A stretch of DNA of 64,000 nt, taken from Paecilomyces variotii (Eukaryota). This document shows positions 10,219 through 50,836 of the stretch, piece by piece (position 1 is the stretch's first letter; each line of letters opens with the position of its first letter). The position numbers and the translations under genes are program-made. The stretch lies in NCBI GenBank assembly GCA_004022145.1, contig RCNU01000001.1, one strand, 5' to 3'. Under the pieces are notes generated by a model. It had not been told where the DNA came from. It did not search any database and was given only the letters and a program-made list of their open reading frames with translations.

Positions 10219-10441
10219 TTACTGGTAGCACAAAGTGGGCAGTCACACAGAGGAAGAAGCCCAGGCGACGGATGTTGGCTGGTCAAAAATTCCATAGAAT
10301 TAAATAGCTTGTGGCGCTACCTAAGCAAAATAGGTACTTCACACCATGAGCTTCCTTACCTAATTTAAAGAAGTGATGCCCCATCCTTAATTGTTTGCTA
10401 GTTGCACACGGCAGGTTTTGTGAGTAGCTTGGTGAAGGAAG
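10219..10441 (+). repeat. Degenerate direct repeat R1, left copy (partner at 14605-14890)
   Basis: Colinear shared blocks: ttact(g/a)gtagcacaa, gccc(a/g)ggcgac(g/a)gatgttgg, aattaaatag, ccatgagc, tgatgccc, gttgcac, gttttgtgagta, gtgaaggaag. Confidence 0.85.
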
Positions 10442-10726
10442 TTATGGAAATCTTGCTTGTCTAATTAATTGCAATCGACTAACTATCGGATGACTCGTGG
10501 AATAAGATAGAACAAACGAGATCTACAACGTAGATAAAGCACAGAAGTGAAGCACAAAATAGTATCTCTGGAGCAAAGCTCGCTGAGCTTGGATTTATCT
10601 AGCAACTAGCTCAGACTATTTATCCCTGTGGGTGGAGGGGCTAGAAAGGCGTGGGAGAAACCCGACAGGAGATCTGCCTGTAGGCAGATTCCGACATAGT
10701 ATCTGACGGTCCTTTAAGTAGACAAG

Positions 10727-11743
10727 TCACGCCGGTTGAAATCCCATATTGACGATTTCAGCACTCGCCCAAGTACGCAATATATCGACACTCAGATTCC
10801 ATACGTCGGCACCATTTCTTCCAGGAAATACGTGCGCGGGCCCAAAGAGCTGAGCTCGAGTTATAGGGATAACCTGGGTCGCTGCATTTGCCGGCACTGG
10901 GAAGATGGCCTATTATCATTATTTAATCACCTGTTTGGTACCAGGGTATCCAGTAGATTAATAACTTACTCCGCTTTGCTTCAGGTATGGAGTGTTTCCA
11001 GCGTCTCGTTCCCAAACTTCAAAAATTCCCTTGACTCTATGGACCGGAGTCTCGATGGTCTTTGTCCAACAGAGAACAATAACAACCTGTACTGCTGGCA
11101 GCCCACCAACAAGCCACATGCACATATCTCCATGGAGCCGTGGCAAACTTTCGGTCCACCCGCTTTCAATTGCAATGCTTGGCATCAGTACAGAATCATA
11201 GTGGATGAGGAAGTCTGGATCTTTTCGCGACCCAGTATACTGTCCCGTGAAATCAGAAATAGCTGTCCACTATTAGCAAATAACAATTGGAGGTGAAGTA
11301 TATTATGATCAAAGGGTATTAGCATACTCGTGCCAACCCCCGTCTTCAAGCCAAGCGCTTCTGCAGCATTTAAGAATCCAGAAAGAGCCATCCGCATGTT
11401 CTCTTCATGGATCCACTGTTGATGAACATTATGTACATTCGTGGGCATGATTAAAACGTTAAGCACTTTGGTAAAGGAGTTATAACTGAAACTAGGAAGC
11501 ATTAGTGAAATGAATAGGTAATATATTATTCAATCTTCTTCTCATGGAATTTTACCGAGGATTGCGTCGTTCAATATCAGGATCTTGAGAGAGTGAGTCA
11601 AGCAGTAATGAGCCCTGATCAGTCGAGATATTCTCGAATCTTAGCTCCGTGCATTGAGTAGCTGTCTGTATCTGCCTTTTGATTTGATCGAACCAGGCCT
11701 GGGCAGAGTTGTTCGACTGCGGGGGTGATGCGTTGACAGTCAT
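10727..11743 (-). CDS. PD-(D/E)XK / Uma2-like restriction-endonuclease-fold protein (gene A), 4 exons, apparently intact
   Basis: GT-AG introns 11492-11555, 11263-11327 and 10910-10969 give an open frame with SRKDPDF...PSIAIESGWTESLPRL...WLVGG...VVIVLCW...IFP...GRNGADVWNLSVDILR. Confidence 0.75.
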
Positions 11744-12436
11744 TGCGAAGGATGTTTTCGACAGAAAGTTTCTGCAGCCAGTATTTGAAAGATAGATTTG
11801 TGTTGGTTTCCTTCTGCGGACTTTTATGGCAGATGGTGAATGACAGAAATCCCGTGGCCGAGGGCTTCAGATTGTAACTAGTACGTACTAGGCCTCTGGA
11901 AAGTAAAATCTGAGGTAGATGTGAAAGGAATGCCCGCATAAAATGTACTGGGAAGATATATTGACTGGAGCTGACGAGATGCTGGATTGAGGATCGAGGA
12001 TACTGCCGTGACCTGACTCTGGCTTACTATGTAGTTAGTTAACTAGGTACTTACCTGTTAGTTACCGGTAGATATTATTTAAGTTAACTAGGTTGGTCTT
12101 CACTTAGTAAGGTCGCGCCGTAACTACCTAGGTAACTAATCTGGGCCGCCTTGGGAATTAATTCTACAACTAAATGTTATGTAATAAGCTGTGGTTTAGT
12201 TAGTTAACTAGGTATCTATCTATCTTCTTTTATACTTAACAACTTAGTGGACTTCAACCTAACTTTAGGAGCATTGCTTGACATCAGTGATCATACAGAT
12301 GAAGGGCAGGGTTGCTTAGCGACTACTCAGTGAGCAGATTAGTTGCGAGAGGCTTGGTAAAAGGAGTGCCCCTTATAAACCAAGGAAAGGTGACCGGCTT
12401 CAAGGTTGTTACTAGAGTAGTGGACACGCTTTGAAA

Positions 12437-12803
12437 GATGGCGCTGGCTGCTGCTCAAATGGACCAGCAGCAAATCTAACCAGTATTCGCCTCGCGGTAA
12501 GAGCTTTTTTATTTGGCACCCGAGAAATCATGATCTGAGAGATAAAACTTAACAAGGCAAAAAGAAGGTAGACCTACCATAGCTGATAGCCTGTCGTGTA
12601 TTTAAATATTAGCTTCAACCAGACCTCAGTATGCCAATGGTAAAGAGTGTGCTTACGATCAGATTAAAGATTAAGTTTGCAAGACCACATAACAAAATAC
12701 TCATAGCTGTGGCAATATTTAAATAGTCAATTGTGACTCTAGATTCTCTCATGAATCCTGTATACTGGACGCCGCCGATAGCGGTCGCAGCGCCTAGAAC
12801 CAT
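12437..12803 (-). pseudogene. Decayed MFS transporter N-terminal fragment
   Basis: Reads ...LCGLANLIFNLI|intron 12591-12656|AISYGR, then frameshifts to VYLLFALLSFISQI...RILVRFAAGPFEQ, resembling MFS GRRPVYL and GRILxG motifs. The rest of the transporter is absent. Confidence 0.65.
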
Positions 12804-13214
12804 GACCCGGAAACAGACAGATTATCTATCATTTGGAAAGGAAGGGAAGATATGTTAGGAAATGGTAGCCTGGTTGCCTACTAGTAGTCTAGGATCTGTT
12901 GCCTAACTTCTTGCCTAATATCAGACACTCTCCCTTTCCTTTTACAGTTTGAACCTCATCTTTCTTCATTTCATCTCTCAACCTCGACATGTGTCATATC
13001 GGAAGTCGACTAGACGACTCGACCAAAAAGGAGAACTCCTTAGAGGTCTGGTCCTAGCTGGATCTAACATCAGGTTATCTCTTTTTGTGTCCACGCTTTT
13101 CTGCTGTTAACAACCTTACATTCCATCTCTTCTGACGAGCCTCTCGACCTTTGATAACCTTATTTTCCCCTCTATTCTGTCCTTACATCTCTCACCTTCA
13201 CGACTTTCCATAAA

Positions 13215-14341
13215 ATGCCTCGAATTATGCGTCAAGGACTCGACAAAGTCAAAGAACTGCTTCGCTCAGTAAAGGGCATACTCAAGGAGGAGCCGGATAC
13301 AGGCCAGAAACTGGATGAGGCACGTCGGAAACTGGATAAGGCCTTGGAAGTAATGGACAGACTGCCAACTTTGGCAGCCAGCAGCTTAAGGGAACCAGAT
13401 GTCACGGATATATTCGGTCTATCATATGATAAAAGATCACCTGAAATATGGAAGATCGACGAACGTGATCTTATTCCAGTACCAGAAGCTCTCTGTAAGT
13501 CTTTATCCTAAATGCCATTCATTTCTTTAGGAAAATTCCCAAAATTCTAACCTTCCTAGTGTCCCGTATTGAAGAGATGGAAAAGGTCCGAGGAATACAT
13601 CCTATAAACGAGGCGACGGTTCGATGGCGATTAGATATCATTCTCCAGTATTGTGTTAGGCTCGAGCAGCAACGTGTCGCTGATATAGATCCGACCACAT
13701 CAGAGAGGCCTATTACTCTCACCGCCGAAACGCAACTGGAATGCAGGATAATGTATAAGAAGCAACCTGTCCTCCTGTCTGGAAAGGCAGACTATAGTAT
13801 CTGGTATGAAGACCACGGAATGTCAACAAATTTAGTGATATGTGAAGCTAAAGACCTTGGGCATGCATCCATTGGTATCCCTCAATGCCTAGCGTATATG
13901 GGTACGTTGACCAACATTATTGTATCTTTGAATAACAATAAACTAATTAGATTATATAGGTATGGTAAATGACATTCGTCGACGGGAAGACAGAATAAAC
14001 TCTATGGTCTATGGATGTGTTACGGATGGACAAGGGTTTACCTTTCTACGCATCGACAATGACCATAAGGTAAACTTTCCTCGTTTTGACCTATTATATG
14101 GTGCTAATACTTTCATTTATAGTACTCTGTATGGAACAGCCAACGGTGGGATAACGGCTTTCCAGAGAGAGACAAAATATGGACTCACTTGGTCCGTATG
14201 ACGAGATGTGCTAGTGCGTTATCGCCAAGGACGTCGGTGAAGAAAGTACATCGAGCAGTGGATGATACGACAAGGGGGCAGAAGCACTGGAGGCTCCATT
14301 TCGGTAGCAGTGAGCGGTCAGATGAAATGATGAGTATGTAG
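13215..14341 (+). CDS. PD-(D/E)XK nuclease-fold protein, Crinkler/REase-like (gene C), 4 exons, apparently intact
   Basis: Introns 13495-13559, 13902-13959 and 14070-14122 restore one frame. Motifs NEATVRWRLDIIL, LSGKADYSIW, LVICEAK, GIPQCLAYM, VYGCVTDGQGFTFLRIDN; coiled-coil-like N-terminus. Confidence 0.78.
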
Positions 14342-14391
14342 TACACTTTGGTAGGTTGCAGGATTAGAATGATATCGTCGATACCAGTGGC

Positions 14392-14583
14392 AACATATTG
14401 GCCATGATGGAAAGTATGGCCTAGACGAATCGGATGAAAACCACCAATGTCGTAATAGTCCGGCTCTTCTGCGACTGGGTAAGAATTGACGCGCTCTAGC
14501 GATGTCAGTTGAGAGGGTGTCCCAAAGAACTTTAACATTCGCGATCGTATTTGGGCTAAAGACGCTTTTAATAAACTCATCAT
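14392..14583 (-). pseudogene. Truncated SRPK/Sky1-like protein kinase N-terminus
   Basis: EEPDYYDIGGFHPIRLGHTFHHGQYV matches the SRPK-family pre-kinase motif. Similarity stops before the expected KLGxG Gly-rich loop. Confidence 0.7.
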
Positions 14584-14604
14584 CTTAGCAGAAGCTGCTC
14601 AGTG

Positions 14605-14890
14605 TTACTAGTAGCACAATGTTCGGGGGTCACGCAGAGGGAGCAGCCCGGGCGACAGATGTTGGTTATGTACTGTACCTAATGTTTTTCTTACCAGATA
14701 TTAATATAATTAAATAGTTTGTAGCGTTAAGCAGAATTCTTAAACCCATGAGCGTTCTCGTTCGAAGAAATGATGCCCATTCCTTAGTTGTTTACTGGTT
14801 GCACGCGACATGTTTTGTGAGTAAGTATTTAGGTTGGTCTTCAGTAAGATCGCGCCGCAATTCTATGTGACTAGGAGATTGTGAAGGAAG
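14605..14890 (+). repeat. Degenerate direct repeat R1, right copy
   Basis: Aligns by eye to 10219-10441. Contains an extra block (14830-14857) also present at 12089-12120. Confidence 0.85.
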
Positions 14891-17800
14891 CGGTGAGAAA
14901 CGTCCTAATTCATCGCCTCGCTAGCGCTCAGCAATCAATTCTTATCCTCCATATTTCTCCTCATCTTTAGGATAGTTATACATACTTCTTTGTCACAAAA
15001 TCACTGCTTTCCTTAATCATTTCCGACGTCCAACGGCCACCAATAGGATTAGGATTCCGGGGATCATTAGGCCTTAAGAGAATTCTGAAAGGAATCCTTG
15101 TTTATTTATATCCTCTTAGTGTAATGCAGCTTGCGTGCTTGATCTGGAGATAGCTCTAATCGGTTATTTTGGCTATATATTGGTCGCGTAAATATTAGAT
15201 TTTAAATCAGCGTATTATTTATAGGGATTGTCGTAAGTGTAAGAAGAAAGCGGACTTCTTATCACAATAGGTCCTATATAAAGGCATTCTAGATGAACTG
15301 GTAGTTGCTCTTGTTATAGAATATAGCCATATCATGATCTGCTAGCAAATTTATAAGGGACTATTTGGATTCGACAGAAAGACAAAGACATTATGAATAT
15401 CTAGATGACACTGAAAGTATTCAATTCGAGGCATGAATGTGATAAGTGTTGATGGGAAGTCTTACGTGATATGCGGGGAACATAGTTAAGTCACAAATTG
15501 ATATCATACTGCAGCCATTGGATAAGTCTACTGTCCGGATATAACGGAAAATCAGTGATATTGATCTGGTACCTATTAAAATTGCGGATGTTGACCGCTG
15601 AACATAAAGGTGGTAATTTGATGCAAGAGGGATCGCAGTTTTGCTACAGTCTTTGATTTTGGCTGGTCACTGAAGACAATAAGTTTTTTAAAATATTGTC
15701 GACCGCAACCTTTTCGTATAGGCGGACTCGAGGGATTCTAACCACGGTGTTTCGACCTGTTATTGCACTGCACCTGGTAGTCTCAGACTTTGAAGGTAGG
15801 CACGTCGTTATGCGTTATACGTCATGGCGGAAAGATCAGATATGAGCATCCGTTGCGGCAGGCATACGGCTCAAAATTAAAACAACATAATAATCAAATC
15901 AGACAGGAGGCAAGCTGCTGTTATGTGATGAGGTGATCTTTGACTTCATTCGGCTCCACTATCACGTATAATTTTAGGAGTCTGTAAGTCTGTAGCAGTA
16001 ACGAAGAACACGGTTGAGATCCGGTCAAACCCCGCAGCCGTTGGTAGCGGACCCCCACGAACAATGACAGGCAGGACGGTGAACACAGACGAACTCCTAG
16101 AAGGGATGCCAGAATCGCCTGGCAGGTGTTCTGTGGCACAGTCACTGGCGGGATCTGTTTGTATGCAGCACAGCTGGGATCATTACAGGCGGAATGGATC
16201 GCTCCGTGGGAGGACGGTGCAATCAGGACGCAGTGGCAGGTTTCTGTAGCCTCAAAGCTGGCCCGTGTAACGATCATGCAAGCGCTGGCGGGGACGTTGA
16301 TGGTTATTTTAGTAGGCGTTGAAAGTCAATTGACACCGTGGGTCGACGATGCAATCGGTTACTTTACGTCAATTGCCTGTTTCGAGTCAGTGGGACAAGA
16401 GAGAGGAGTCGCGGAGGAGAGACATTTCATTCGCAAGGATTGATCATACTCGCCTACAGTAACTGGAACTTATGATTATTGCTATCACTAGGGTGCAGCA
16501 ATCAAAACAAGGCGGATGCGATGCTGCACAGCGGTGTCTGCAAGAAAGCATCGACCCGTTATGTTGTATCACTTTCCAGTTTCCAGGGTCCAGCCCATGG
16601 CCCAAAAGACGGCCGCGATCTGCATTGCCATGCAATCAATGCCGCTGAATCGACTAACCAGGAGCTGGAGAAGGCATCAGTGGTGATCCAGCGAATACGA
16701 GGAGTCGAGGACCATATGGGATGTACCCACAGCATCTAAACCTCCGAGCACTCGACAGACGAACTACATACATACAATTACATCCATTCATTTCTCACGA
16801 CGGGACACACTTGACTTGCATCCGGCCAATGCAGGCGCACAGACAACCAGCTGTCCAGAACGCGCAAGTGGCAGCTCCATCGGATGGTCCAGATCGACCG
16901 GGACGACGTCGCTACATTTCCGCGACGGTCTAGAGTGCAGTAAAAAAAAAAAGAGAAGAATAGGCTTGGCTAGATGGATGATGTTGGACTCACCACCAGG
17001 GTCAGAGACGAGACAAGGTTCCAGTGACGGACTGCGTCGAGCATGCTGGATGAAGGAGCGTATTCTCGAAAGCAGGAACATTGTTATTATTCAATAATGG
17101 GTATCTAGTCTACACTATGTCGCACGGAAGCTCATGTTCTGGAACCCCGCAAGAGATGGATGATCCCGGCCAGTAGCAAGGGCGCCACTAATCTTCTCCG
17201 CACATTCCAAGTCGATCGAGTCCAGGCGTGCAGTGATGCGCTCGTCTCCGAGGCAGACGAAAAGGAGTTGTGATGCTGGTTCCCGCGGTGTTTGATTATT
17301 ATGCTATTGTGCTCACTGACTTCATCAGCAATTGATTCGCTAATCGCTGAGCGTCAGTTGCACAGGAGGTGTGCAAGCTCCCGAACATCTTGCGTTCACC
17401 ACCGTCCTGGACTGGTGGCGGCGATGTCGGCTTTGTCGGCTTGGGTGGCTTTGTTCATGCCTTTGATCATTACTATGTTGGGAGCCCCAGTGTGGTTGGT
17501 ATCCAAAAAGTGGCCGGTTCTTCGCTGATAAGCCCACAGTGGCTTCCCCGAATTATCTCCTGACATCTTCGATCTCTTTGGTCCTGGACTGATAACCCGG
17601 AATCGATGTTCTCAGAAGCATCTCGAAATGGAAGACAGACGGACCTAGGCCGGGGTAGACGTGCTACTCTATTGCCACTGTTTCGGTATCGTACCACATG
17701 CCAGTCTCACAACACTGGCCTTGACAGGCGAAAGGGAACCCCTGTTCCGCATCCACGATGCTCAAGAGAATGTGGAGGATTCCGGGGAAATGACAGATTG

Positions 17801-19494
17801 CACAATGCTCACAATCGATTGAATCCGGGGTATAGCCATCTTCCCCAGGGGGTTCCCCATCCACTGCAAACGGGGATTCCAGACAATTGCTACTTGGAGC
17901 ATACGGTAGTACCTGATAGCATCGAAGATCCTCGTGTTTCATCACATCGAGTCGAGATCTATTCGGTTCACGCTTCGTCAATGTTCAAATTGCGGGGGCA
18001 TCATCTGTTTATGAGAATCTCGATGGCTGATGCGGAGGACATCTTGGACGGGAAGTTCTACTTACGTATTGAAACATGAACCCAGGCAGGTTATCCATGA
18101 CAGCTGGAGCGATCGTGAAGGTAGATGAGGTGCTGGGTAGTAGTAGTTGTGCTCTCTACCTAATCTATCTCGTAAAATACCATCGATCAATCCATTATTG
18201 TCGAGCGGTGGCACAACAGGAAAGAGAACAGAACAGGAAGGAATATCCTATCTACGAGAGACAGGCCAGCTATCTCTGACCTCTCTGGATGCAGGACAAC
18301 GCATCCGAGATCCATGGATACAGGAGCCGGAAACATCAGGATCCCACGCACGAGGCACGGATCTCCTGCCAGTCGCTCGGATGCACAATTCTACGGTTCT
18401 GGCCCGGGCAAAACCCCCATCCTCTCGTACTGCCGCATCGGGGAGGGGGAAAAGATGCTGATGGCGCTCGTAAAAGGCTGGAGAATCATTCCTGCTTGCT
18501 CCGGACAAAGTTAGGAAGTTGTTCTGTCGGCACTGCTGCAGTATGTATCACCTTCCAATTAACTATTATTATTGTTTTAATAATAATGCCCCTCCGCCCT
18601 CCGTGCACTCTCTCCTCCTCTCTCCACTCCCCACAGAAAACGAGGATCGTCGGGTTTTTATCAGCCAACGACTATCTGGGGAACGGACGACGTGCTCTTC
18701 CATATTTTATTTCTCAAGTTCTGATACTACTAGTACTACTAGCGCTAGTTTTCACTACTCCCACGCCGCGAGTCTATCTCGGGTCCTGAGCGACAGACCG
18801 GACATCGGGATCGCAATATTCTCGGCCTTGCTGGTCTACAGAGGAGATTGTTGTTTGCCCCTCGCTGGCCGTGCGCCGGAACGATGGATGCCAGTTCCTT
18901 GCTGAGCCGGTGATTGATCGCACCAGGAATCGACAGTCTAGGTTACTCGTCCACATCCCGACTCGGATCAGCGTGCGATGACATCCTAACCCGATCCCTT
19001 CTAGCATCATCGTCCTCGAGAAGAAGTACTCTTAAGGGGCACAGCCGATTTTTCGTCTATTTTTGCCTCCTCCCCCGAACTCTTTGCTACCATATACCAT
19101 ACACATACTGCCGTTGTTCCCCGTCACATCCGGTTTCCAGGAAACAGGCCAGAACCCTTAGCGCCCTGTGGCTTTTTTTTGCGCTTTGGCTGCCCGGCTT
19201 ATCGCGCTGCTATCGCCACCATCCCGGCCCTCCGCGACTCCGCGCCGCCTCCCTTCGGTTTTGGACGGGCTCGAGCCTTTTACATCGAACAGTTACACCA
19301 CTGTCCTGTTGGCTCTTCTGTCTCTCTGACCGACTTGCTGAGGCTGTTTCGTCTACGTCTTCCATCCACCTAAACTACTACTACTACTATTACAGTCTCG
19401 ACCGCGGGCAGAAGGAAAACCTGAATATCAACCGCCTCATGCCAAACTATATCACCTTTTTGATCTGGTAGTCGTCTCCGATGCTGCTGCTAAG

Positions 19495-21187
19495 ATGACT
19501 GCTGTGCTTCTGGCTCCTGGCCGGTCGCCGGGGGACGTTCGATATTGTCACACGGATCTACGCCATGCCAGTGCGGAGGACCTGCTAGATGTCCAGGATG
19601 CCTTTCTTTCTTCGTCTCCTCGCGACTACACTGGCTATCCTGAGATATCGCGGTCGCCATCCGTCTCATCCTATGCTCACTCTGCGTCTACCTCTTCGAC
19701 CTTTGCCACATGCTCTCCTTCAGTGACACCAAACTCGTCCCTCAGCCCCAACGACAACAGTGTCGATGATGACATTGCGTTTCCGTCCTACGATGAAGAC
19801 TGTTCATTCGAAACCACCGTTCGGACCAACCAACAAACAGGTGTAGAGTCAGCGAATCCCTCTCTGGAGGCTCATTGCGGGACCTCCACCCCAGACTCTC
19901 TACTGCCAACCGGCAAGGCCGCCAATGACGATATAGCGATAGAAGATGAACCCTCGAGGCATGTGGATTATCTCTCGCATGATTGGCGTGAGGAGGATAT
20001 CTGGTCATCCTGGCGCTACGTTATCTCTCGAAGAAATATGTATGCAAATGCGGTGCGGTTAGAGAATGCCTCGTGGAGGACGTGGGCCAAAGCGAAATAC
20101 AAGTTGCGGACAGTGTCGCCGGAGACATTGAACTGGTGAGTCTTTATAATGTTATTCTTGCGCGGATACACTGTGTCTGTTTCTAACACTGAACAGGCTG
20201 AAGGACTGCGATGTAACCTGGCTATATGGGCCTCTCCAAACCGAGAATAAGCAACCAACAGTATCTAGTACAGGCAGCCGGGTTGGGACCCCTGCTTCGT
20301 TCAAGTCCATCTTGAAGAAGAAGACTGCTTCGGAGAATATTTTACAGCGCTCTCTCTCGCAGCATGTACTCCTCAAGCATGCCGGTGCAATTCTAAGGGC
20401 ACGAGAGGAGGAGACCAATCGTGGAAGATCCCCCTTTGAGAGGAGTATCTCTGACATGGGTGTGACGCGGACACCCGCGGTTGACTCGGCTTTCAGCTCA
20501 ATGGATACTACCCCGACGAACGCAACTTCGTCAGGTCTTACTTCCCCAGGAGAAAGACGCCACATTCACTTCAATAACGAAGTCGTCCAGTGCATCGCTG
20601 TCGAAGCGAAAGGCGCAGATGACGACTACAACTGTTGGTCTCATCCGTATGATCAGGACGATGAGTCGGATGATGATGGGCTGGTCATAATGAAGCGATT
20701 CTCTTCGAGGCCCCCAATTGCGAGGAAAAGAGCCCCTACCAGGAGTTCTAGCAGCGAAAGCAAGACGATAGCCCCATTGCCTCCGACCACGCTCAAGTAC
20801 CGCGGCGATACACCAGAGCTTCCATCATCGGAAGGTCCTGCTGGGATGACTGAGTCTCCGAACCTGACACACACACCATCAATGGAGACCCTACGGCCGT
20901 CCAAGTCCCAGACCAATTTCCTTCTTGATGACGAGGACGATCTGGATATGCATTGGCAGCCAAGGCAGCCAATCTATGCGCCTGGACCGGACCGACCATG
21001 GTTCGTCAACCCGGAAGACGAAGAATCTGAAAACGGGTGCGAACTCCACTTGACGCCGTCCGGCATGTTCATGCCTTACGAGGAAACAGAGGGCTCTTCG
21101 TCTGGTCTCTTCGGACGGGTCATTAACACCGTCAACACTGCGAGAGATATCGCTCACGTTATCTGGAACGTAGGATGGAGACGATGA
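19495..21187 (+). CDS. Reg1/Hex2-like PP1 regulatory subunit (DUF1752 family)
   Basis: HVDYLSHDWREEDIWSSW, RLENASWRTW, LNWLKDCDVTWLYGPL (across intron ~20136-20196), KSILKK, and RHIHF PP1-docking motif. Confidence 0.85.
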
Positions 21188-21987
21188 GCTGATCTCCCGC
21201 TAACGGTCCAAGGTCTTTGAAAGGCCGTTAAGTGGCCTGAGCACGAAGTATGGTCACGCCCGTTTTGAGTTTACCGTTCAGTCTTCGGACAGCATATCAA
21301 GGCGTTGTTTCGCAACTATTTTTTTTATTCTGGGAGGAAAGGATGGGATCATGGAAATGGGTTGTTTTCTAGCGCTTCTTCGATCATCAGCTGCGGAGTT
21401 GGGGCATATAGTATTGTCTGTTTTGCAGTGCCGCTTTGTTTGTTGCAGAAGATCCCTTATAGACGAGCTGCAGGCCTCTCCAAAGAGACACGATGAGGTT
21501 TTCTGGAGCAGGAGGAGGCATTCTTGACGATGGCTCTTTCATTTCAGACACGGCTATTACTGAACCACCGCTTGGCGCTAAGTATGCCTGTCGATCTTGT
21601 AAAGATAACGAATTCCTTTTTATAAAAAAAAAAAATACAATTACGATAGTTAGAAATAATACAGTGTCTACCATTGTCCCTGATATTGTGTTAAAAGTTG
21701 ATGCCAACCATGAAGGGTCCAGGGTCAAGGGCTGTGGACCCGCGGGACCGCAGACTACGGGGAAATCCCCATCGTCGTCCCTCTTGTCTCTGCCCCTGTT
21801 CCTGGTCGCAGTTCGCGGCTTGATCGCTGCACACCCGCTGTGGAAATATCACACCGATGAATTGTGGCTATCTTTTCTCAGATAGTCACTACCATACCGT
21901 CCTTGCGGTTTCTCCAGCGCCAAACGGCATTCTCGACCTGATCGGACGATCCTGACCATCATCCAGTCCGGTACTACGCTTCCCGCC

Positions 21988-24603: not shown

Positions 24604-24630
24604 ACGCGTAATAAAGTTACGCGCCTCGCG
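24604..24630. promoter_or_regulatory. MCB-like (ACGCGT, CGCG) cluster upstream of RAD17
   Basis: ACGCGT at 24604-24609 plus two nearby CGCG cores about 230 bp upstream of the ATG. Confidence 0.5.
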
Positions 24631-38601: not shown

Positions 38602-41200
38602 ATGGCTACCCTCAATCTCTCCACGAACGGGCCGACGATATCCAGAAGCTACCAATCAGTCGTGAATGCCCCGGCTCCCAGTGGCCCTGCTGCTTCCTCT
38701 CCTACCTACGCCCAATGGGCGGTATTCTCAGTATCGGCTCCTCTGGCGAACGCCTTCCAGGATGTCGGCAATAAGGAAAGTGTCCTGAAGGTTCAGAGCA
38801 CAGGAGGTCAGTGACAGACGTCTTCGACCGGCTTCTCCGCCAGACCAAGGCTAACACACACACACACGTACAGAGGGCGAATTGATAGACCTGATCGACG
38901 AACTCTCGGAAGGACGAATACAGTTCGCCTATGTCAAGGTCAGAGACCCGAACACCGGTCTCCCCAAGAATGTCCTCATCGCCTGGTGCGGTCAAGGTGT
39001 TCCGGAAAGGACAAAGGGTTACTTTACCAGCCATCTGGCTGCCGTCTCGAAGTTTCTGCATGTTAGTTCTCCTTTCGTTCTCTCCGACGGAGGAAGCAAC
39101 CAACGACTAATTGATATCGGCCGGTTAGGGATACCATGTCCAGATCACCGCTCGCGCGGAGGGCGATTTGACCCCCGAAGGCATCATCCAGAAAGTTGCG
39201 GACTCCTCTGGTGCCAAGTACTCTGCTGGCGAGGCCCCTGCTCCACCCCCCGTCAGTGCTGCTTCAAAGCCCCCGGTGGCCACCAAGCCAGTCTTCACGC
39301 CTGTGCGGACTGGAGCCCTTGGATCAGGCACTGCGAGCCTTCCTCGCCGAACAGTACCCCGCAGGGAAGAGAATGTCGATGATGATGGGTGGGGTGCTGA
39401 TGCGCCTCCGGTGACTAGAACGCAGCTGGAGAAGGTCCAGCCAGCGTACAAGCCTACGAAAGTGAACATACAAGAACTGACCTCTCAAAAAACGGCCACT
39501 ACCTCATCCACCCCGGTCGACGACGCAGGCCGGAGTGATGTCGTTAAGGGAGGCTACCAGCCCATTGGCAAGGTAGACATCGCTGCTATCAGGAGACAGG
39601 CCCAGGAGTCTGGACAGTTGCAGGATGACCGTCCAGCGCCGGTCAAAGGCACATATGAACCGGTCGGAAAAGTTGACATCGCTGCTATCCGTGCACGAGC
39701 CAGGCAGCCCGACGAGACACCCTCATCGATCTCTCCTGCCGTGACGGGGGAGCCTGCAGATGAAGACCGGCCCAAGACCCTCGCCGAACGGTCCGCGGCC
39801 TTTACACCCTCTGAGCGTCTAACTTCCCTGCCCAAGCCTAAAGTGGAGAACAAGTTCGCTGGAAGCTCGCCCTTCACAGCCACTAAACCTCCAGTTCCTG
39901 GCGGCTTCGTTGCCAAACCCCCTCCTGCTGCTGCGCCCATTGGAGCCGCCAGCAGAACATTTGCTGACCAAGGCGGAAAGACGCCCGCTCAGCTGTGGGC
40001 GGAGAGGAAGGCGAGGGAACGCGGCGAAGCTCCAGCAGTGTCCGATGCGGGCGCCGCGCGACCCGTGAGTCGAGATCAATCAACCGGCGGAGGAGAGTGG
40101 AAGAGTGGATATACTGGCAAGTCGTGGGCTCCCGTCCAAACCACCCACACCGGCAAATCTGCCAGCAGTGCTCTTTCTGGCCAGCACACTGGATCTGTAG
40201 CTGGGGAGACCCCTGAGGACACCCCCTCTGGAGGTGTCGGCTCGCTTCGCGATCGGTTTGCCAACGTGGCACCCACTAGTGCTGCCCCCGCCGCTGCTTC
40301 TCCTCCTCCGCTGGATACCAGCAGTAAGCCGAACGCTGGACGTGGGATCCCCATGCCTGGACTTCCATCTGGTCCGGTGCAACCGGAGGAGAACTACGAG
40401 GCGGAAACTCATCAAGTTGCCCCTACTCCGCCGCCACAGCCACGATCTCCTACTCCACCCACTCCCCCTGCAGTGCGTGAGAGTTCTCCTATCCGTGTCG
40501 CCATGCCTGTCGGGCGCGGAGTTGCGGGTGGTCATGAAGAGATCAACTCTCCACCCCCGGCCATGCCCGTTGAGAGCCTTCAGCAGGCTGTGCCTAATGA
40601 GGAGGATCTGGAAGAGCCTGCTCATGATCCCGCCCGTGCGGCGGCTGAGACTACCGCATCACACGTGTCTCAAGGAGGCGGTATTCGAGCCCTTGTGCAG
40701 TACGACTATGAGAAGGCGGAAGACAACGAGATTGATCTGAGGGAAGGAGACTATGTAAGCGAGATTGAAATGGTGGACCAGGATTGGTGGTTGGGCGTCA
40801 ATATCAACGGCGAGCGTGGATTGTTCCCCAGCAACTATGTCGAAGTGGTCGAAGCCGGAGACGAGCAGCAGGCGGCACCTGCAGCCCCAGTACATGAGCC
40901 AGAGCATGAGCCAGAGCCAGAGCCAGAACCGACAGCGCCAGCGGCCCCAGCAGCCGCTGCTGGTGGAAGACCGACTGCGACTGCGCTGTACGATTATGAA
41001 GCTGCGGAAGACAACGAAATCAGCTTTCCTGATGGCGCCAAGATCATCAATATTGTAAGTGCCACGCAGTCTCAATCTATCATCTGGTCACATCGACTAA
41101 CAATTGTTCTCAGGACTTTCCCGATGAGGATTGGTGGTCTGGGGAGTACAATGGAAAGACTGGCTTGTTTCCGGCGAATTACGTCCAGCTGGACGAGTGA
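38602..41200 (+). CDS. ABP1: Actin-binding protein Abp1/drebrin-like (ADF-H domain plus two SH3 domains)
   Basis: ADF-H ([28 protein letters not shown]), two repeated GKVDIAAIR motifs, SH3 domains ([11 protein letters not shown]...[19 protein letters not shown]...GLFPANYV). Three introns. Confidence 0.92.
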
Positions 41201-42255
41201 GCCCGCTTGGACCCCAGGCTTGCGAATGTTGTCGTCAAACGTTTCGATGCTCCTTTCTCCCAACATCAGCTCCCGTGCGAGCACTGAATGCAGTTATACC
41301 GTGCAGTGCCAAGGCTCGAGTCCTAACCAGCTTCCTGGCCGCTAGATTCAGCTCCGGACCTCAAGCCGTGTCTTCCATTCACTGTATACATTGTTATATG
41401 TTGGCTGACGGTTTCTGGTATACCTTGGCTTCCTCCCTTTACATCGATCGTTGCTAGCCCAGTTTGCCTGTATTATTTACACGACTAGTCATCATCCAGG
41501 AGGGTTGGTGGACGCGACATATATCAGTGGCCGCCTTGTTAAATTGAAGATCACCAGTGAATAGAGTCTGATTTGAAGATCCGTAGCTTGTGCCTGCGCC
41601 ATGCCCTGGCGAAATTATTATTATTATTATATTCCTCTGTAGTCTTCTGTACCGTAAAGTACCATATGATAGTCGACGGGGCTTGTGATTGGCCAGCCAA
41701 AGTGAAGCGGCTCTCCACCTCGGCATCTGCCCTCTTGGCCTCTCCGTTTCCCCCTCGAGAGAGAGTCGAGACTGACTTGACTGTCACCAGTTGCATCTAT
41801 TTCAACTATCGCTCCATCTTGATCACCATCTCTATCTATCCTCATCTTGCCTCTGCCCTGCTGCTTCGTAGCCGGGTTAGCATCTTTTTTTTATTGATCT
41901 TTTTTCACGCCTTGAACTACTACAGTTCAGAGCTGCCCCGGGCGCACCTTGTCAGCTCAAAAGTGATACCCTAATCTACCCTGTATCATTTCATCCATGC
42001 TGCCATCCTGCGACTTGCTTGCTTGCTCTCTATTTCTATACATTCCTGTCTAAGCTTGGGTGAACTGCCTTCGTCATTACAGGAGCTCCCCAACGTGCAT
42101 GGGGAAGGATCCGCCTCGAGTTCTCCGTATCTCGTGCGCTCCTTCGCGGTGTTCAGACGCTTCTCCCGCTTGGTCTTCCCGTCCACACTCTTGTCCTCGT
42201 CTTCGAGGCAGCCCATACTGTTGCTTTTTAGTGTTATTGCACTATCTCTGCTGAA

Positions 42256-45200
42256 ATGGAGCATCGGTCACCGGTGTCGGGACCCGGTGCTTGAAAGCTT
42301 CTTTAGTTTTCCTTTCCTTCTATTATACTTTCCCGTTTCCTAATTCTCATATTTTTTTTATTCTGCTCTGCGCACCTGTTCATCCTAGGACAGGTGCCAC
42401 CGGCAGTTATGTCGGACTCTCTCAGGGATCCTGGAAATAGAGGGCCATCTTCTTTTGAACCAGACAAATCTACCGGCATCGAGGATGTCCGGACTCCTAC
42501 ACTCGATTCCAAGGATTACTCCCCTCGGACACAAAATGATCTGGACAGCCGTCAGGCAAATTCGACCGTGGATTTCCAGGATACGCAATCATTGTCTTCT
42601 TCTTCTTCGCCCCCATGGCATAAGGATTCTATTTCTCCAGGAACAGAACTTCAGCGTAAACGGAAACGTTCTCTAACGACTGACAACTTGGCAAAACCAC
42701 TTTTGACGGACCATATGGATGCTGACCACGAGGATCCTACCACTTTACATTCTATGCCGAATGTCAAACGGGCAAAGACCGGGGAAACTGTTGCAATGCC
42801 GGAAAGAAGTTCTATTCCCGTCGACAAATCCAAGTTACCCAAGGAGTTATGGCAGCATATTTTTACTTTCCTTCCTCCGGCCACACTTGGTGTCCTATTG
42901 CGTGTCAATAAAGCCTTCAATTCTTACCTCACTTGCAGTGAGACGGATTTCTCCAGCACTCCTCGCTCTACTGGTTTATTAAGATTCCAAACTCAGGATT
43001 CCATCTGGTCCATTTCCCGTAAAACCTTCGTCCCAGGCATGCCACGGCCATTGATAGACAAGACTGAGCTTGAAATGTGGCGTTTGACCCGTGGACTCTC
43101 CTGCCAGTTCTGTGGAAAGTCCAGGATACCGACTCGACCTGAGTCGTCACCCTGGGAGTCCGGTCCAGGTCCCGATGGTGTCCGTATCATATGGCCTTTT
43201 GGGATCCGGTCGTGTGGAGACTGCTTCTCTGCGAGAACCGAAAAGGTTCGTTCCGTTAAATCGAGGACCTGTCTGCTTTATTAGTGACTGACGCTGCCAT
43301 TCCTAGGAGCTAGATGTGATGCTCTCATCACTCCCAACGTTCTTGATTCCTGCGCTTCCGTTCGCCTTGGTTACCTCCACATTGCATTTTGTTCCATCCG
43401 TCACTCTCCGTTCAACACCCGTTCCACCGTCTGCTGCCATCACAAAGTATTATTTCAAGCCTCATATCGATAGCCTGAAGCTCAAGTTCGAGGATGTCAA
43501 AAGCCTTGGGCCGGCCGTGGTCGAGGAATGGATCAAGGGCCTTGACAGTAAAGGCAAGGAGCACCTGGCTGACTCTTCACGGTGGGAACAATGGGAAGCC
43601 AACGGTGGTTTGCGCGCAGTCCAGGAAGGCGGATCTCTCATAGGATCAAGGCGTCCACGCACCACTTCTCCCGCCAAATTTGATAATACTGTCCCGTCTT
43701 CCGCAGAGCCAAGGCAGACTGGTTTGTCTAATGGAAAATGGACCTCCAGCGAGCGAAGCCCTGCCGCTTCTGCGGCCAGGTATGGTACGTATCAAGACTG
43801 CTTTTCTTCGTCCGATATATCGACTATGATCACCATATTTTTGGTCTCTAATGTTCTTGAATTCGTCCGCTGAAAATTACCCCGCAGGTTTAATACTACC
43901 ACCTCGGCCTTTTAGTCCGCAGGTCCAACCGGGTCACCATTTCCAGCCACGCATGGAACGAAATCTGCGCGATATAAACGAAGCAAAGGCTGCGCGTCGG
44001 GCTGAAATCGAGCGTCGGTGTGCTGAAATGGATCCTCCTCTCACCCCGTCTGTTTTAAGTCATATGGAATCTTTCCTAGCTGCTATACAAATTCCCCATC
44101 CCTTCACAGATCGAGATTGGGAGATCCTAAAGCCCCGATTGATGACGCAGAGAGAGGCTGCTGAGCGAAAAGAAGAGCAGCGCCTGAGGCAGTCCCAACT
44201 CCTGCAGGCACGATCCGAAGAACGTCGACAGCAGGAGGCCCACTTGAAGGAAGCCAAGGAGATGCTCGACCGTGAATGGGAAGATGTCCAAAGACCTATT
44301 CGGGACCGAATGGCCATGTATGCTGACGAGATAATCAATGAAGGTTGGCGTGGTGGTAGCGCTGTTACTAAAGAGAAAAGCCCGAAATTTGCCGCGGATG
44401 TGTTGATGTATGTTCGCAATAAGTTCTACGGTCACATTGAGGAAGAGGATGCCATTGCCCGCGCCTCAGGGAAGCCTGTTGAGCTTGATCCACCCAACGC
44501 ACCCCCTCGTCGCAAGCTGATCCTGGAGAACATGAAGTGGATATTTGATACTAAGGTCAAACCTTTCACGGAGCAGTTCCAGAAGGAGTTGTTTATCTGC
44601 AATGGATGTGAGAACAACTCTAAATTTTACGGGTTCGAAGGCGTCATACAGCACTACGCTGCCAAGCATACAAATTCTCTCAGCCTAGGCAGTGTTGTTG
44701 TGCACTGGCGGTCAGAATGGCCCGAGAAGCCTCCCTTTCATCCAAACCCGAGTGCTGCCAAGGCTCTTTTCATGGCGATGGGCCAGAATTCCGGATTTCC
44801 AGGACACCAAAAGCCATCCGGGATGTTCGTGCCTGGCACCGATCAAGGTCATCCTATACACCCTGATACCCCCTCCATCTATCCACATCAGTCCCCAGGC
44901 CCGTACGGTCCTCATCCATATACTCCATATCCTTACGCCCATGGACCGTTCAGACCACCGTCCCCCAACATCAGTCACTATTATCCTGGTTCACCGCCAG
45001 CGTATGGATACCCTGCTCCCCAGACAGGATTTCCTGCTGGTGCTCCTTATGAACAACCTGTGCCGCCACCCACAGTATATGGTTCTCCATATATCAGACA
45101 CGCCTATCCTGTTTATCAGAGGCCCGATCATCACGTCGCGCCTTATGCGACACAGCCGTATGGACCGCCGCCACAATATGTGCCGCCCTATCAGAACAGT

Positions 45201-47435
45201 TCCAGGCCGCCGAAGCGTAACGGCCAGTTCCATCATTACAACTCACCAGCTCACTCGTTCGGGCCTTATCAGGATCAAGCTGATGAAATGGCAAGAACCG
45301 CACGTGAAGTATGGAACAGGACCTCCGGGATCAAGGACCTCCCAAATAGTGTTCGGGCGCATGTTCTGATGTACCATGTCATCACCGCGTTCAGAGAGCA
45401 GTTTCAGGGAGATCCGCCGGTGGCGCTCTTTGCTGATTGCTTAAACAATCACCCACAGATGAGACCCATCCGAAATCTGGGCGGTCTAGCATGTAGAGCT
45501 TGCATTCGAGGAGAGGTCTCTGGTGGATTCCAGCAGCCCGAAGCCGGAAATGATGCGAGACTCTATACACTGCCGGCATTGGTTAGTCACTTTCAATCTT
45601 CCCACGGAGAAGCCGTGAAGCCTAGCATTATCCCGCAAACTGGGGTTGAGGTATTGAGACCGGACTGGAAGTATGATATGATCGAACTTCCAGACGCATC
45701 AGCAGTCGCCTTGCTTCTCCAAGCTCCCGGTGTGGATGGGGCGAAACTTCAGCTTGTTGCCGATGCTTTCCCGGGCGTCTTTTCAAAACGTCCTGCGTCG
45801 AGGGAAATAGTCCATGCAAGATATCAGGCTCCTTCGCCACGTGCGAAAGCACATACAGATGCTCGAGAGGCAAAGCGACACTGCCGTGGTCTCTCCGTTT
45901 CTACGTATGACAATCTGGTGGCTGATTCAGAAGAGCGACGACGAGAGGTATCTTCGAATCTGTCAAGCCCTAGGCGGCGTGACTTGGAATTAGTGGTAAG
46001 CCGCGTACAAAGGGGTATTGAGTCCCCCATCAGAGACTCTGCCAGGCCGTCCAGACCATCGCGGGATGATGAGTACTATCCGCGCCGGCCATCATCCATC
46101 GAGCCAAGCCGATTCCCTTATGAGAGCATGGGTAACAGGCCACCTGCTTCACCGCTTCACCGACAAGTAATCATGCATGGGCCATCTCACGGATATTCCT
46201 CTTCCAGGGACTACGATGATAAATCTTCACGCGGGACTCCTGCTAGTAGAAACCAGGACATGGAAGAGCCGGACAGGAATGACCTTCGATCCCATACGTC
46301 GACGGTTGACCGCTCCAGACATATCTTGGCAGATGCGACAAGTCCGCGGCTTTCCAGGCATCGGGAGCATTCTGCTAAGCTAGAGTATCGAAACCTGGAC
46401 AGCGAAGTACTGGCTCCTGCACATCGTCAAGGATCCGTCAGGGCCCGTACTCCAGGGAAGGATCCCGAGGATGAAAAGATCGTTGACAAGCTTAAAGCCG
46501 AGAAAGGACCGATAGACGAGGTCGCTTCCACTGGAAGGTTGAGCGCGGCCGAACGTTTCTTGGAGAGTTTCTTTCCTGAGCAAGAAGCAGATACATATCA
46601 ACCGGACGATTCTGAAGCCCAACCTAGGATTGAGACATCCCCTGGACCGCAATGGCGGCAAGCAGAAATGGAGCCGCGGCAGTATCGTTATGGCCCATCA
46701 GCTGACAGACCAGGCGAAAAGAATCCGCGAGGTGTCCGTGGCCGCAACGCTGCCTCTAGCGGTTGGCCGAGGAGAAAAAGAAGTCCTCCTGCAGGTTCCT
46801 ATGACTACGAGGCACGATATGATTCCCGCAGCAGTAGGGGCCCGCCGCCGAGGTTCTATAACGGAAGATCCCCTGATCAGGCGGATTCTCGACAAGGAAG
46901 GAGGACTGCTAGCCACCAAGAGTCCAAACGGCCGCACAGTCGATTCGACCGCTATGAAGCTCAACGACAAGGGTCACTACGACCACGATCAAAGTCCCCT
47001 GGCGTCCGAGACCGAGTCCCTGCAGAAGTCTCTTATTATGACGAAGGCAGGCCTCAAGTCCAGTCTCGCGATGTATATCAGGGGCACACTCCCGATGCGT
47101 ACTATGAACGCAGTCGCGTTGAAGAGCTAGCATATACAACCGCCCAACGAGGGCGTTATCACTATATTGAAGAACCAAGAAGCGTGGAAACACAATACGA
47201 CAACCCTGTCGAGTACGTGCCCGTGCGTGTGGCCGCTCGAGAGCCTGGAGATTCCGGGACGTATTTCGTTGAACGAACGGCGCAGGCGAGCATCCCCAAA
47301 GACTACACCAGCTATGATATAGAGGCCTCCCGTCAGCCAGTATGCGACGGCCAGGTCCAGTCATATCACTCTCTTGCGCAGTCGCACGTCCTCGGTGAGC
47401 GCAATGCCGTTCGGCTGGATGGGAGTCTCCGATAG
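42256..47435 (+). CDS. Large F-box-like domain protein with Cys/His motifs and low-complexity C-terminus
   Basis: LPKELWQHIFTFL...LLRVNKAF F-box-like motif; CQFCG...CGDC and CNGC...HYAAKH motifs. Introns ~43246-43307 and ~43785-43887. Start is either 42256 (via intron 42287-42388) or 42409. Confidence 0.8.
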
Positions 47436-47893
47436 CTTTTGAATGAGCGAAACATTTGTCGTGTATATAGTTTTACGGCTGCTGCTAGAAAAAGGCCAGC
47501 TCAATGTAACTAAGAGGTATACCCTGCCACTGACTTGAGACCATTTCTCAGTTCTCTTTACTGTCCCAGTTACTATACCACCCAGTAGTATTACCATGCA
47601 TCTCTGGTATCTATCAAATTACATGAGGAGTAAGGTAATAGGCGATAACATTCACCTACCGTTCCGTGATGTAACTGTCTACTACTTACATGAACGAATG
47701 ACGCAATTCTCTCTACCCCACCTTGATTATTTATTTATAAGAACCGATCGCTCATCGGCAACAATAGACTATTCAACAATTCTACACTGACCCTCATTCG
47801 TCTCGATTTCCCGCACTATTTCGGACAGTTAAACAACTTACCACCGAACGGTATTAGGTCACATTGATATTCTGCCGTCGTGCTATATCTATC

Positions 47894-48823
47894 ATGGCGC
47901 TCCCTCCGAAGTACGCGGGACAGAAGTTGTTCGCAGCCGCAGCCACGGTGCAGCAGGCTCATCATACGCTTGAATTATGTAGGTTCGAACTAGATGTAGT
48001 TTAATTGAATATTGATGATGGATTCGAGCTAATGCTTGTGGTTGTTTGATTGATTTCATATAGATCTCGATTATGTTTGTCCTGTAAGTATGGTGTTCGC
48101 GTTTCCACCCTACAATAATAACAACTGGATACATACTAAAACCTGGCGCGGCAACTAGTTCTCCGCAAAGCTATTTAACACATTTTACACCTCAGTCAGG
48201 CCCGTCGTTGTGGAGAAATACAAATCTAAGCTCCAGGTAATCTTTCGTCAGCAGATTCAGCCCTGGCATCCATCGTCGACATTGACGCACGAGGCTGCCG
48301 CCGCTGTGTTGAAGGTAGCGCCTGAAAAGTTCTGGGACTTTAGCGCCGCGTTGTTCAAGCACCAAAAGGACTTCTTCGATGAGAATGTCGTGAATGAGAC
48401 AAGGAACAAGACCTATGGGAGATTGGCGAAGATAGCGGGTAGTATTGGAGTGGATGAGAGCGAGGTGCTTAGTTTACTGGTTATCAGTGACAAGCCTGGT
48501 CCAGGAGGCATCTTGAATACTGGCAATGGTGTCACTAATGATATTAAATTCATGACGAAGGTAAATAAGAACATGATGTCTGAGGGAATTGGCAATGTTG
48601 GGTTTATGGCTTATTTAAAATATAGGTGAACCGTGTTGTGGGCGTCCATGTTACTCCTACTGTATTCTTTGATGTGAGTTGGATCGTCGCTGCTGAGTTA
48701 CCATACATGAAGTAAAGTGAATGTTGACTGTGGTTTGAAATATAGGGAGCCGAGGAGAAGGCTATCAGCAGCAGTTTTACAGCCGCTCAGTGGGAAGAAT
48801 GGCTTCTGGAGAACGTGATTTGA
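47894..48823 (+). CDS. DsbA-like thioredoxin-fold protein
   Basis: Spliced LELYLDYVCPFSAK (CxxS), FRQQIQPWHPSS, GVHVTPTVFFDG; several short introns and micro-exons. Confidence 0.85.
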
Positions 48824-48887
48824 GACGTATCGAATCTGGATCCACTGGAGGTCTCCCAGATGAGATTCCCGGAGGCCAGAGTGAAAC

Positions 48888-49116
48888 GTGTCGTCGCATA
48901 AAAATTTGTGTAGGTGATCTGCCATATCGCCCGTTTGCGATAGGTTCCTTCATACCTATCCTAGTTATAGGATAGAACCTAATAAATCACTAGGACCTAG
49001 ATTTTTTTTATATGCTATAGGAGATAACCATGGGATTAATCCCCCCCTAGATCCAGAGTCAAGCCAGAAACCTAACAACGTAGCCAAGTAGTTCAAATCA
49101 TACCGTTGCTTCCGTG
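48888..49116 (+). repeat. Degenerate direct repeat R2, left copy (partner at 50637-50836)
   Basis: Shared colinear blocks: gtgtcg, aggtgat, gtttgc, ataggat.gaacc, atcactagga.ctagat, tatgct, atgggat, aatccc.ccctaga, ttgcttccgtg. Confidence 0.85.
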
Positions 49117-49637
49117 TCCTTTAGGATGCGACACGGTCATGTTGAAGGTCAGTTGGTCCTGTCCTTAGTCATCGTCGTTGTCCTGTCCTGTCGCGTTTCC
49201 CTCGTCGACTATAACTATCGCGCTATTACGGTTGGGAGTTGGCTGTTGGATGTCGGATCGGGTGTCCAATCTCCTGGCTGGGCGAAGGTCAACATGTTTG
49301 GCACCTTGACGTCGGGGATGACAAAGTGTAACTCGTCCTCCTCCACGTTTGTCCCCCCTGCTACTATGTAAAGTCTGGTTCTGACGGCGTAAGCCCACCT
49401 TTCCAGGTTATGAGCCGTAACTCGACGGAGCTCCTCATCGTCGTTAGCCAGTGCGAGTTCTACCATAACGTCCGTGACATCCAACTCCTCCGCCACGTTG
49501 GCCGGGGGCACGATCTGCCCCTGTCTGTCTATGAATTGGTGTGTATAAAGTTTCGGAGCGCCCCTTGTGACGCGGAGGTAGACGTCACTCCCTTCTTTGC
49601 GATGGGCTGGTGTCCTTGGTTTGGGGGGAACACCAGG

Positions 49638-50629
49638 TTACCCCTTTGGATGTCCTGGATCATCCGGGCTGCCTCTAGTGCGGAGGGAATCCAACGGCCA
49701 TTGCCATATATCACTAGCATTTCTGCCAAAAGGTACCTGACCCGAAGGATAAAAATCCCCCCTATAAAGGGTGATTTCCTGTGCCGGGACCCCTAGCGGA
49801 GGAGCTGGGAATATCTCCTATAATTGTATCCGATAAGTGAGCAGCAGAAAAAGAAAGAATAATAGATACTTAAAAGAAATTACTACTGTAATACTCACAA
49901 AACGTTGACAAGTTAAAGAATTCCGTCTCCAAACTGCCAGGAATCCTTCTACGATCGTTCCACTCTGTACTAGAGACCACTTTAGGATGATTACGACATT
50001 TACATCTGACGTTCCGTTTATCCAGATGTCCCTATGACAGATTAACTGTGGATAGGATTCCGAATAACCCGCCTCGAAAACAATAGTCGGATGGCGTGAC
50101 CCCGGGAGACGAAAATAGGCATCTGGTTGCTTAAGTGAGTTCTCATATGGCGGCAAGAAATTTTCAAAAGCTAGTTATTGGGTTTCGAATTAATACCTAT
50201 CTCTCTCTCTCTCTCTCGTCGTATATATAAGATCCGAATTAAGAAAGAAAACTTACTACTATCAGAAGAGAAAATAAACGCGTCAAACTCCTGCAATGTA
50301 AAGAAGCCGCTAGATAGACTCAGTGCGAACTCGCGGACAGCCCAAGCTATATGAGAATTCTGAAACGCAATGGGCGTTTTGATGGACAGAATGCGCGTAA
50401 ATGAGTTATATGAGATGTGGACTGAACGACGTTCGATCTCCCCGTTGCTATCGAGACTTTTCGACAGCAGCAAGCCAATGCTGGGGTCTGAAACATTGTA
50501 CTGGAAATAGCCTGGACCGTTGCTGGTGAGAATCCTTCTCTTTACCTCGTAGAAGAGCTGCTGGGCTGTGTGGGTACTCTCGGAAGGATTGGCTTCGCTG
50601 CGTAGGTAATGTCGCTGGTTCGGAGACAT
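49638..50629 (-). CDS. PD-(D/E)XK / Uma2-like nuclease-fold protein (gene B), paralogue of gene A, 3 exons
   Basis: Introns 50171-50256 and 49818-49898. SLKQPDAY...PTIVFEAGYSESYPQL...VVIILKW...EIFP...GRNASDIWQWPLDSLR; last residues diverge from gene A. Confidence 0.72.
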
Positions 50630-50636
50630 GGTGGTA

Positions 50637-50836
50637 GTGTCGGTGTACAAAAGAAATGCCAGGTGATATGTCGATCATCTGTTTGCAGCAGATCATAAAT
50701 ATAGGATGGAACCAACTAGATCACTAGGATCTAGATATGTTCTTTGTATGCTGAAGAGAAATATGGGATCGAATCCCGCCCTAGACCTAGAAGCAAGCAA
50801 GCAATTCAAGTGTTCAGGTCAGACCTTGCTTCCGTG
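50637..50836 (+). repeat. Degenerate direct repeat R2, right copy (5' leader/promoter of gene B)
   Basis: Aligns by eye to 48888-49116 and begins 8 bp upstream of the gene B ATG. Confidence 0.85.

Follow-up and report, generated by a model that had tools for sequence, protein, structure and literature searches.

Proteins of the PF05685 group (Uma2/DUF820/TT1808) are predicted endonucleases that are found in a mobile context in some bacteria (PMC3424549). Nuclease domains of the same superfamily kill in Spok and Crinkler (CRN) proteins (PMC12693581, PMC5289972), and Spok is a three-part protein in which one part is a kinase resistance domain and killing requires a lysine (PMC12693581). We analyzed a 64,000-nucleotide stretch of Paecilomyces variotii contig RCNU01000001.1 (the window), in which two genes, A and B, had been predicted from the letters alone to encode paralogous PD-(D/E)XK nucleases, each enclosed by its own pair of direct repeats in a candidate selfish cassette (the original prediction). 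We find that A and B are members of an old, dispersed family of Uma2/DUF820-like proteins, that the genes were probably copied together with flanking DNA into intergenic sites, and that the repeats around them appear mostly to be bystanders.

A and B proved to be genuine paralogues. Their spliced products are identical to database proteins P0162 (A, 275 amino acids [aa]) and P0179 (B, 274 aa), which show 34% identity over 251 codons. As predicted, the two genes have one phase-1 and one phase-0 intron in common, and A has a third intron that is absent from B. A structure model of A built on 77 homologues (predicted local distance difference test score, 95) recovered the PD-(D/E)XK fold that the original prediction had expected of a structure search. 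The model matched 1wdj with a Z score of 14.0 (root mean square deviation, 3.0; 169 aligned), 3ot2 with 13.2 and 9y1l with 10.4, the first two lying well above the next unrelated rows. Foldseek gave an E value of 4e-4 for the nuclease fold, and a structure-Atlas row to Uma2 (template modeling scores of 0.53/0.71) agreed with it. On this model, we assign the family to the Uma2/DUF820-type PD-(D/E)XK fold. The PF05685 profile matched none of the 77 members at an E value of 0.01; no informative family emerged when A, B, the 77 homologues, and the gene C and insert D described below were compared with Pfam and NCBIfam, and a sequence search of solved structures gave a single match, attributable to chance.

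The 77 aligned rows have in common a pattern of H83, K131-x-P133-D134, E150-x-G152, E155, and D163, in which H83, K131, and D134 are each conserved in 88% of rows and E150 and D163 in 95%. The K-P-D and E-x-G elements are retained at 19 of 23 genome loci, and K131 might substitute for the canonical lysine of the superfamily. Residues 13 to 79 form an extra N-terminal alpha/beta domain, which, taken from the full-length model and not folded alone, matches small alpha/beta domains at Z scores of 4 to 5.6 only when considered as a possible counterpart of the ubiquitin-like header fold of Crinkler effectors.

Like the Uma2/DUF820 proteins, the A/B family combines this fold with a P-D plus E core and has expanded as stand-alone paralogues; unlike them, it lacks a PF05685 match, carries the extra N-terminal domain, has E-x-G for E-x-K, and is encoded by spliced fungal genes. 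With the Crinklers of the CR-REase type it has in common a restriction-endonuclease-fold domain, an expanded eukaryotic family, and a link to transposon-rich DNA. In contrast to Crinklers, a reading of P0162/P0001 and P0179 found no LFLAK/HVLV header motif, and the family has no NTPase or kinase partner domain (PMC5289972, PMC6131194). Like Spok genes, the family is nuclease-fold, multicopy, and dispersed, with pseudogenes, but its 275-aa proteins have neither the kinase part (no kinase profile matched, and the model accounts for the whole length) nor the killing lysine (PMC12693581). Neither the Spok nor the Crinkler architecture is present. No paper on this family was found in the literature searched, outside which most subscription journals lie; Zhang et al. 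(2016) may already classify it.

The prediction that A and B belong to a dispersed family of paralogues was borne out. Four genome searches located ~24 family loci, together with fragments, in P. variotii, counts that are lower bounds; of these searches, the two with distant homologues gained only one fragment. Spliced alignment of 23 loci gave ~7 intact copies, 13 broken copies, and 3 unclear cases. The copies fall into many clades intermixed with other database proteins, and even the closest paralogue pair is no more than ~73% identical in DNA. In eight paralogue pairs the ratio of nonsynonymous to synonymous divergence (dN/dS) was 0.09 to 0.24 at a dS of 0.9 to 2.6 (four further pairs were saturated), which indicates old copies that have been subject to purifying selection. 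Because nearly all alignable copies retain the phase-1 intron, spread at the DNA level rather than by a retro route is supported, in agreement with the original argument. The database family comprises 531 clusters (50% identity, E value of 0.001), and the named clusters that we looked up come from Eurotiales and Onygenales.

B lies between a DsbA-like gene and CKS1. We fetched 80 fungal loci, of which 26 had both neighbors (one alignment was unusable). The two genes are 222 to 487 bp apart in 25 of these 26 loci, compared with ~2,980 bp here, and a family member is present in none of the 80 loci. The short gap in the 25 other loci shows that island B is a derived, lineage-specific insertion. 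A and B lie 10 to 12 accession numbers apart, in a stable relative position, in all seven assemblies that annotate both, which does not support cassettes that integrate and excise by homology.

The repeats that enclose B are copies of a dispersed family, RB (~245 bp; 28 genome hits, a lower bound), with ends TGTCG...CGACA that contain a short inverted repeat. Among 14 aligned genome copies, three have target duplications matching at 5/5 positions and three at 4/5, and the copy at L037 adds a perfect one. On account of their ends, their 5-bp target duplications, and their dispersal, we read the RB repeats as solo long terminal repeats (LTRs). No suitably spaced pair that could mark a full-length gag-pol parent was seen among the 28 hits, themselves a lower bound. 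In contrast to typical solo LTRs, the two copies at B (LTR1 and LTR2) lack target duplications: none was found for either alone or for the pair, whose outer 5-mers differ.

The claim that each gene lies within its own repeat pair stood in so far as both pairs are real. At B, positions 48958 to 49070 and 50692 to 50804 are 75% identical (E value of 1e-12), with a local score of 129 against a shuffle maximum of 29. It failed in that the pair at A, RA, also encloses another gene (C) and in that RB is a solo LTR with 28 hits. Furthermore, LTR1 and LTR2 are not sisters. LTR1 ranks LTR2 15th among 19 copies, LTR2 ranks LTR1 13th among 19, and LTR2 groups with the copies at L114 (support of 95/84) and L037. 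Immediately after its stop codon, the intact sister of B, L039, has 85 bp from the 3' end of the DsbA-like gene, a sequence that is native at the B locus, where it is conserved in outgroups. The copied unit therefore ran past the present position of LTR1, and the DNA common to B and its sister lies outside B's LTR pair. A promoter-like match beyond LTR2 was marginal (46 to 49, versus 34 to 42 for shuffles). Two later, independent solo-LTR insertions are the best explanation of B's repeats.

A one-base frameshift near 49680 has damaged the 3' end of B, which is also fused to a retrotransposon-derived insert, D. The 16 genome matches to D are mostly riddled with stops and lie in AT-rich DNA. At L214, D follows RNase H and SH3 remnants of pol and precedes a polypurine tract, and from this context D is a piece of a Gypsy extra open reading frame (ORF) located after pol. 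The original prediction had found no transposase, reverse transcriptase, or tyrosine recombinase nearby. The 12 island exons and ORFs that we scanned had no Pfam match, but solo LTRs and the Gypsy ORF fragment are present. Six distinct B-like models in two clusters at the B position are all truncated or chimeric (107 to 407 aa); a 77%-identical B-like protein from another strain, whose position is unplaced, has a normal end. More generally, 6 of 23 family loci have RB or a second dispersed repeat, RX, at a distance of 2 kb or less, where 0.4 would be expected from known copy numbers, or 2.0 if those numbers are fivefold too low, and family copies are nested with other fragments at L035, L116, and L213.

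On balance, we consider it probable that A and B come from a family of endonuclease-like genes with birth-and-death turnover, whose members were copied with their flanks by break repair into intergenic sites that trap LTRs and debris. The family, which is old in Eurotiomycetes and made up of stand-alone Uma2/DUF820-like PD-(D/E)XK proteins, would gain and lose copies over time. Break repair, a pathway that we infer, would copy a gene along with part of its flanks to an unrelated intergenic site, and such permissive sites would also gather solo LTRs and fragments of other genes. A role in genetic conflict, defense-related or toxin-like, seems the most likely one. What we observed directly is the fold, the conserved acidic site, purifying selection, dead copies, kept introns, capture of a flank, and insertion into conserved host intervals. 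The result provides a fold and a candidate active site for a previously unannotated family with ~24 old copies in a fungus in which repeat-induced point mutation (RIP) is active (PMC6300479), and, with the flanking repeats mostly bystanders, it is a useful annotation rather than a new system.

Several observations weigh against this account. Three B-clade genes (B, L039, and L043) are each followed by an RB-type LTR in the same relative orientation, so that LTR homology or ectopic recombination may have helped to move or convert B-clade copies. B is annotated in only seven assemblies, compared with 24 contig records for A, and this patchiness implies that LTR-to-LTR deletion alleles of B may exist in other strains. 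Clear locus-specific direct repeats are present at L030, L037, and island A and at none of 40 control sites. Finally, the lysine of the canonical (D/E)xK motif is replaced by glycine (G152, in 96% of rows), so that the proteins are predicted metal-dependent endonucleases.

On function, the family may have been kept and diversified as toxins, drive genes, or non-self-recognition effectors, a proposal that is compatible with copying by break repair and that we hold to be possible but not likely. High turnover alongside purifying selection fits it, as does the killing activity of superfamily nuclease domains in Spok and CRN proteins (PMC12693581, PMC5289972). It is also in keeping with two proteins, P0005 and P0006, that are 71% alike and apparently occupy one locus in different strains: at L025 (G000:C10:241,000), each is found on three contigs, six to seven genes from the same neighbor cluster, and the two are possibly deeply diverged alleles. 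Set against this, the proteins lack a kinase or any other antidote domain as well as the Crinkler header motif, no partner gene recurs beside the copies, and A, unlike a segregating killer, is close to fixation and intact in the strains. Of the 10 named members of the A cluster, which come from 24 contig records, 9 are full length.

Some retrotransposons that carry an endonuclease are known to make long target duplications. A self-mobilizing nuclease would leave a trace of this kind: strands would be nicked 100 to 300 bp apart, the intron-bearing gene would be copied into the gap, and a long, decaying target duplication would remain. We masked dispersed repeats and compared the flanks of 21 other family loci with those of 40 control solo-LTR or accessory sites, with a threshold set after seeing the data. 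Clear flanking direct repeats were found at two of the 21 (L030 and L037) and at none of the controls (P = 0.11). L030, inserted in the gap between two convergent genes, is a 1.39-kb segment holding the gene alone between direct repeats of 105 to 115 bp (84% identity over 97 aligned bases), and L037 has a direct repeat of ~190 bp (79% over 157). These repeats and RA, which has two full copies and a partial third upstream of A, are mutually unrelated and lie outside the DNA common to close paralogues. The other 19 loci had no clear flanking direct repeat, so that the recurring repeats anticipated around other paralogues did not materialize. Three weaker cases were at the shuffle level and were dropped (L032, AT rich and below shuffles, and L036 and L026, both marginal), and B and L039 had no flanking repeat after LTR masking. 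Flank comparisons revealed no repeat common to the whole family, and inverted flank scores were at background (maximum, 40), which gave no sign of terminal inverted repeats.

RA itself is ambiguous. Positions 10219 to 10426 and 14605 to 14823 are 67% identical (E value of 3e-14), with a local score of 161 against a shuffle maximum of 37. The copies are 4.4 kb apart and enclose genes A and C, the partial third RA, RX, and a short dispersed repeat, RZ. A 26-letter core of RA has only two matches in the genome. Searches by DNA, by pattern, and by purine/pyrimidine coding found no more copies, although their sensitivity is limited, as the DNA search with RA copy 1 even missed copy 2. RA may end in CA, with AAATA/AAATC outside; given this and the starts TATTAC/TGTTAC, RA could be a local duplication, derived either from an old pair of LTRs or from duplication of a target, rather than a shared element end. 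The idea that A had split RA copy 1 with a duplication of its own was rejected by a direct test (score of 14, below shuffles).

A minimal intron-bearing fungal element that consists of one Uma2-like endonuclease gene, without terminal repeats of its own, and that copies itself into staggered breaks, leaving target duplications of 100 to 300 bp as at L030, L037, and island A, is an improbable reading. Besides the small number of unselected loci with repeats, no paralogue pair is closer than ~73% in DNA, RA starts with TGTTAC and may be an old LTR, and the same pattern arises from ordinary break repair or from tandem duplication followed by gene loss. Should young copies bear out the long duplications, this would be a new route for the spread of eukaryotic genes and would account for many orphan nuclease islands in Eurotiomycete genomes, and the minimal element would be a copy-in element of eukaryotes that lacks a transposase, a recombinase, and a reverse transcriptase.

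The cassette of the original prediction, with its own terminal direct repeats and homology-driven integration and excision, in which B would be a nonautonomous LTR element with its gene antisense, is very unlikely, because, although B is enclosed by two RB LTRs in the same orientation, antisense cargo would keep its introns, RB-type LTRs also follow L039 and L043, and the annotation of B is patchy, the LTR relationships, the lack of a target duplication, and the native 3' flank outside LTR1 led us to reject B as such cargo, 19 of 21 loci lack a clear repeat, no repeat is family wide, and the contigs of four sequencing runs contain no joint between RA copies 1 and 2.

Table 1. Coordinates of the features of islands A and B in the window.
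Feature	Position	Strand	Description
Gene A	10727..11743	minus	Four exons (11743-11556, 11491-11328, 11262-10970, 10909-10727), intact; predicted Uma2-like PD-(D/E)XK nuclease gene, 275 aa
RA copy 1	10217..10426	plus	Starts TATTAC; may extend to 10556; locus specific
RA copy 2	14603..14823	plus	Starts TGTTAC; may extend to ~14997; in 3' region of gene C
RA partial third copy	12044..12138	plus	Upstream of gene A; score of 55 versus shuffle maximum of 35-37
RX repeat	10567..10696	unstranded	Dispersed, probably solo LTR; 7-bp target duplication on both sides
RZ short dispersed repeat	12997..13070	unstranded	Matches in L113 and L223; loose contig ends
Gene C	13215..14341	plus	Four exons, intact, 316 aa; second multicopy family
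Gene B	49638..50629	minus	Three-exon paralogue of A (50629-50257, 50170-49899, 49817-49638); frameshifted near 49680; C terminus lost
DsbA-like host gene end	48804..48888	plus	Last codons and 3' flank; copy also behind L039 stop
RB solo LTR copy 1 (LTR1)	48889..49133	unstranded	TGTCG...CGACA
RB solo LTR copy 2 (LTR2)	50638..50853	unstranded	8 bp upstream of gene B start codon
Insert D	49134..49656	minus	Gypsy post-pol extra-ORF fragment joined to 3' end of gene B; 16 genome matches

The original prediction had also proposed a search for empty sites with one repeat copy in the TMA22-REG1 interval (island A) and the DsbA-CKS1 interval (island B). At island A, the contigs of the four runs gave no in-register joint of the two RA copies. 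The X4, X6, and X15 contigs take in A, C, and their neighbors but break at dispersed repeats, so that no single piece spans the island. A joint of 10595 to 14903 in X6 and X15 was rejected as an empty site: the joint does not match the register of RA, and one side of it, 28 letters long, falls within RX. RX is an insertion separate from RA, with its own target duplication. It is 130 bp long and has at least 41 copies (41 hits among 79 candidates) that are up to 95% alike. It begins with TCTGG, not TG, yet 5-bp target duplications are perfect in 7 of 10 cases, shifted in one more, and matched at 4/5 positions in two.

Gene C represents another dispersed family, the second here, with 11 matches in the genome (loci L107 to L115), several of them broken. 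By its motif, G-x-A-D...E-A-K, alone it may be nuclease-like, and a structure-Atlas match is a lead only. Profile comparison found no link to the A family, but only a single exon was compared, which makes the result uninformative. At L035 (3620-6225), a C-type gene has a decayed A-type gene and another fragment nested between its matches to exons 3 and 4. In runs X6 and X15, the stop codon of C is closely followed (window 14350-14396) by an additional ~1.06 kb of DNA, which the window and X4 lack.

In run X3, which we guess to be RNA, the neighboring TMA22 is spliced, intron 1 of gene C is spliced, and one piece ends at the exon 1 boundary of A, a hint that A and C are both transcribed. The spliced TMA22-like contig of this run (window 9903-10447) extends upstream through RA copy 1. 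A long X3 contig at 15361 to 18000 has a minus-strand intron (16665-16730), opposite to the downstream plus-strand ORFs, and is possibly an antisense transcript or a long 3' region.

Some further repeat debris was seen outside the islands. Fragments of D adjoin Uma2-like genes at L213 (4366-5786), where an RB LTR is also adjacent, and at L116 (4509-5080). L214 (194-6200) and L215 hold Gypsy elements mutated by RIP, in which a long sense ORF separates the integrase from the 3' LTR. At L225 (4638-5122), two RB LTRs lie in inverted orientation ~150 bp apart. Upstream of the family copy at L032 (6000-7200) is a 1.2-kb block of 6 to 10% GC, which is probably a fully RIP-mutated repeat.

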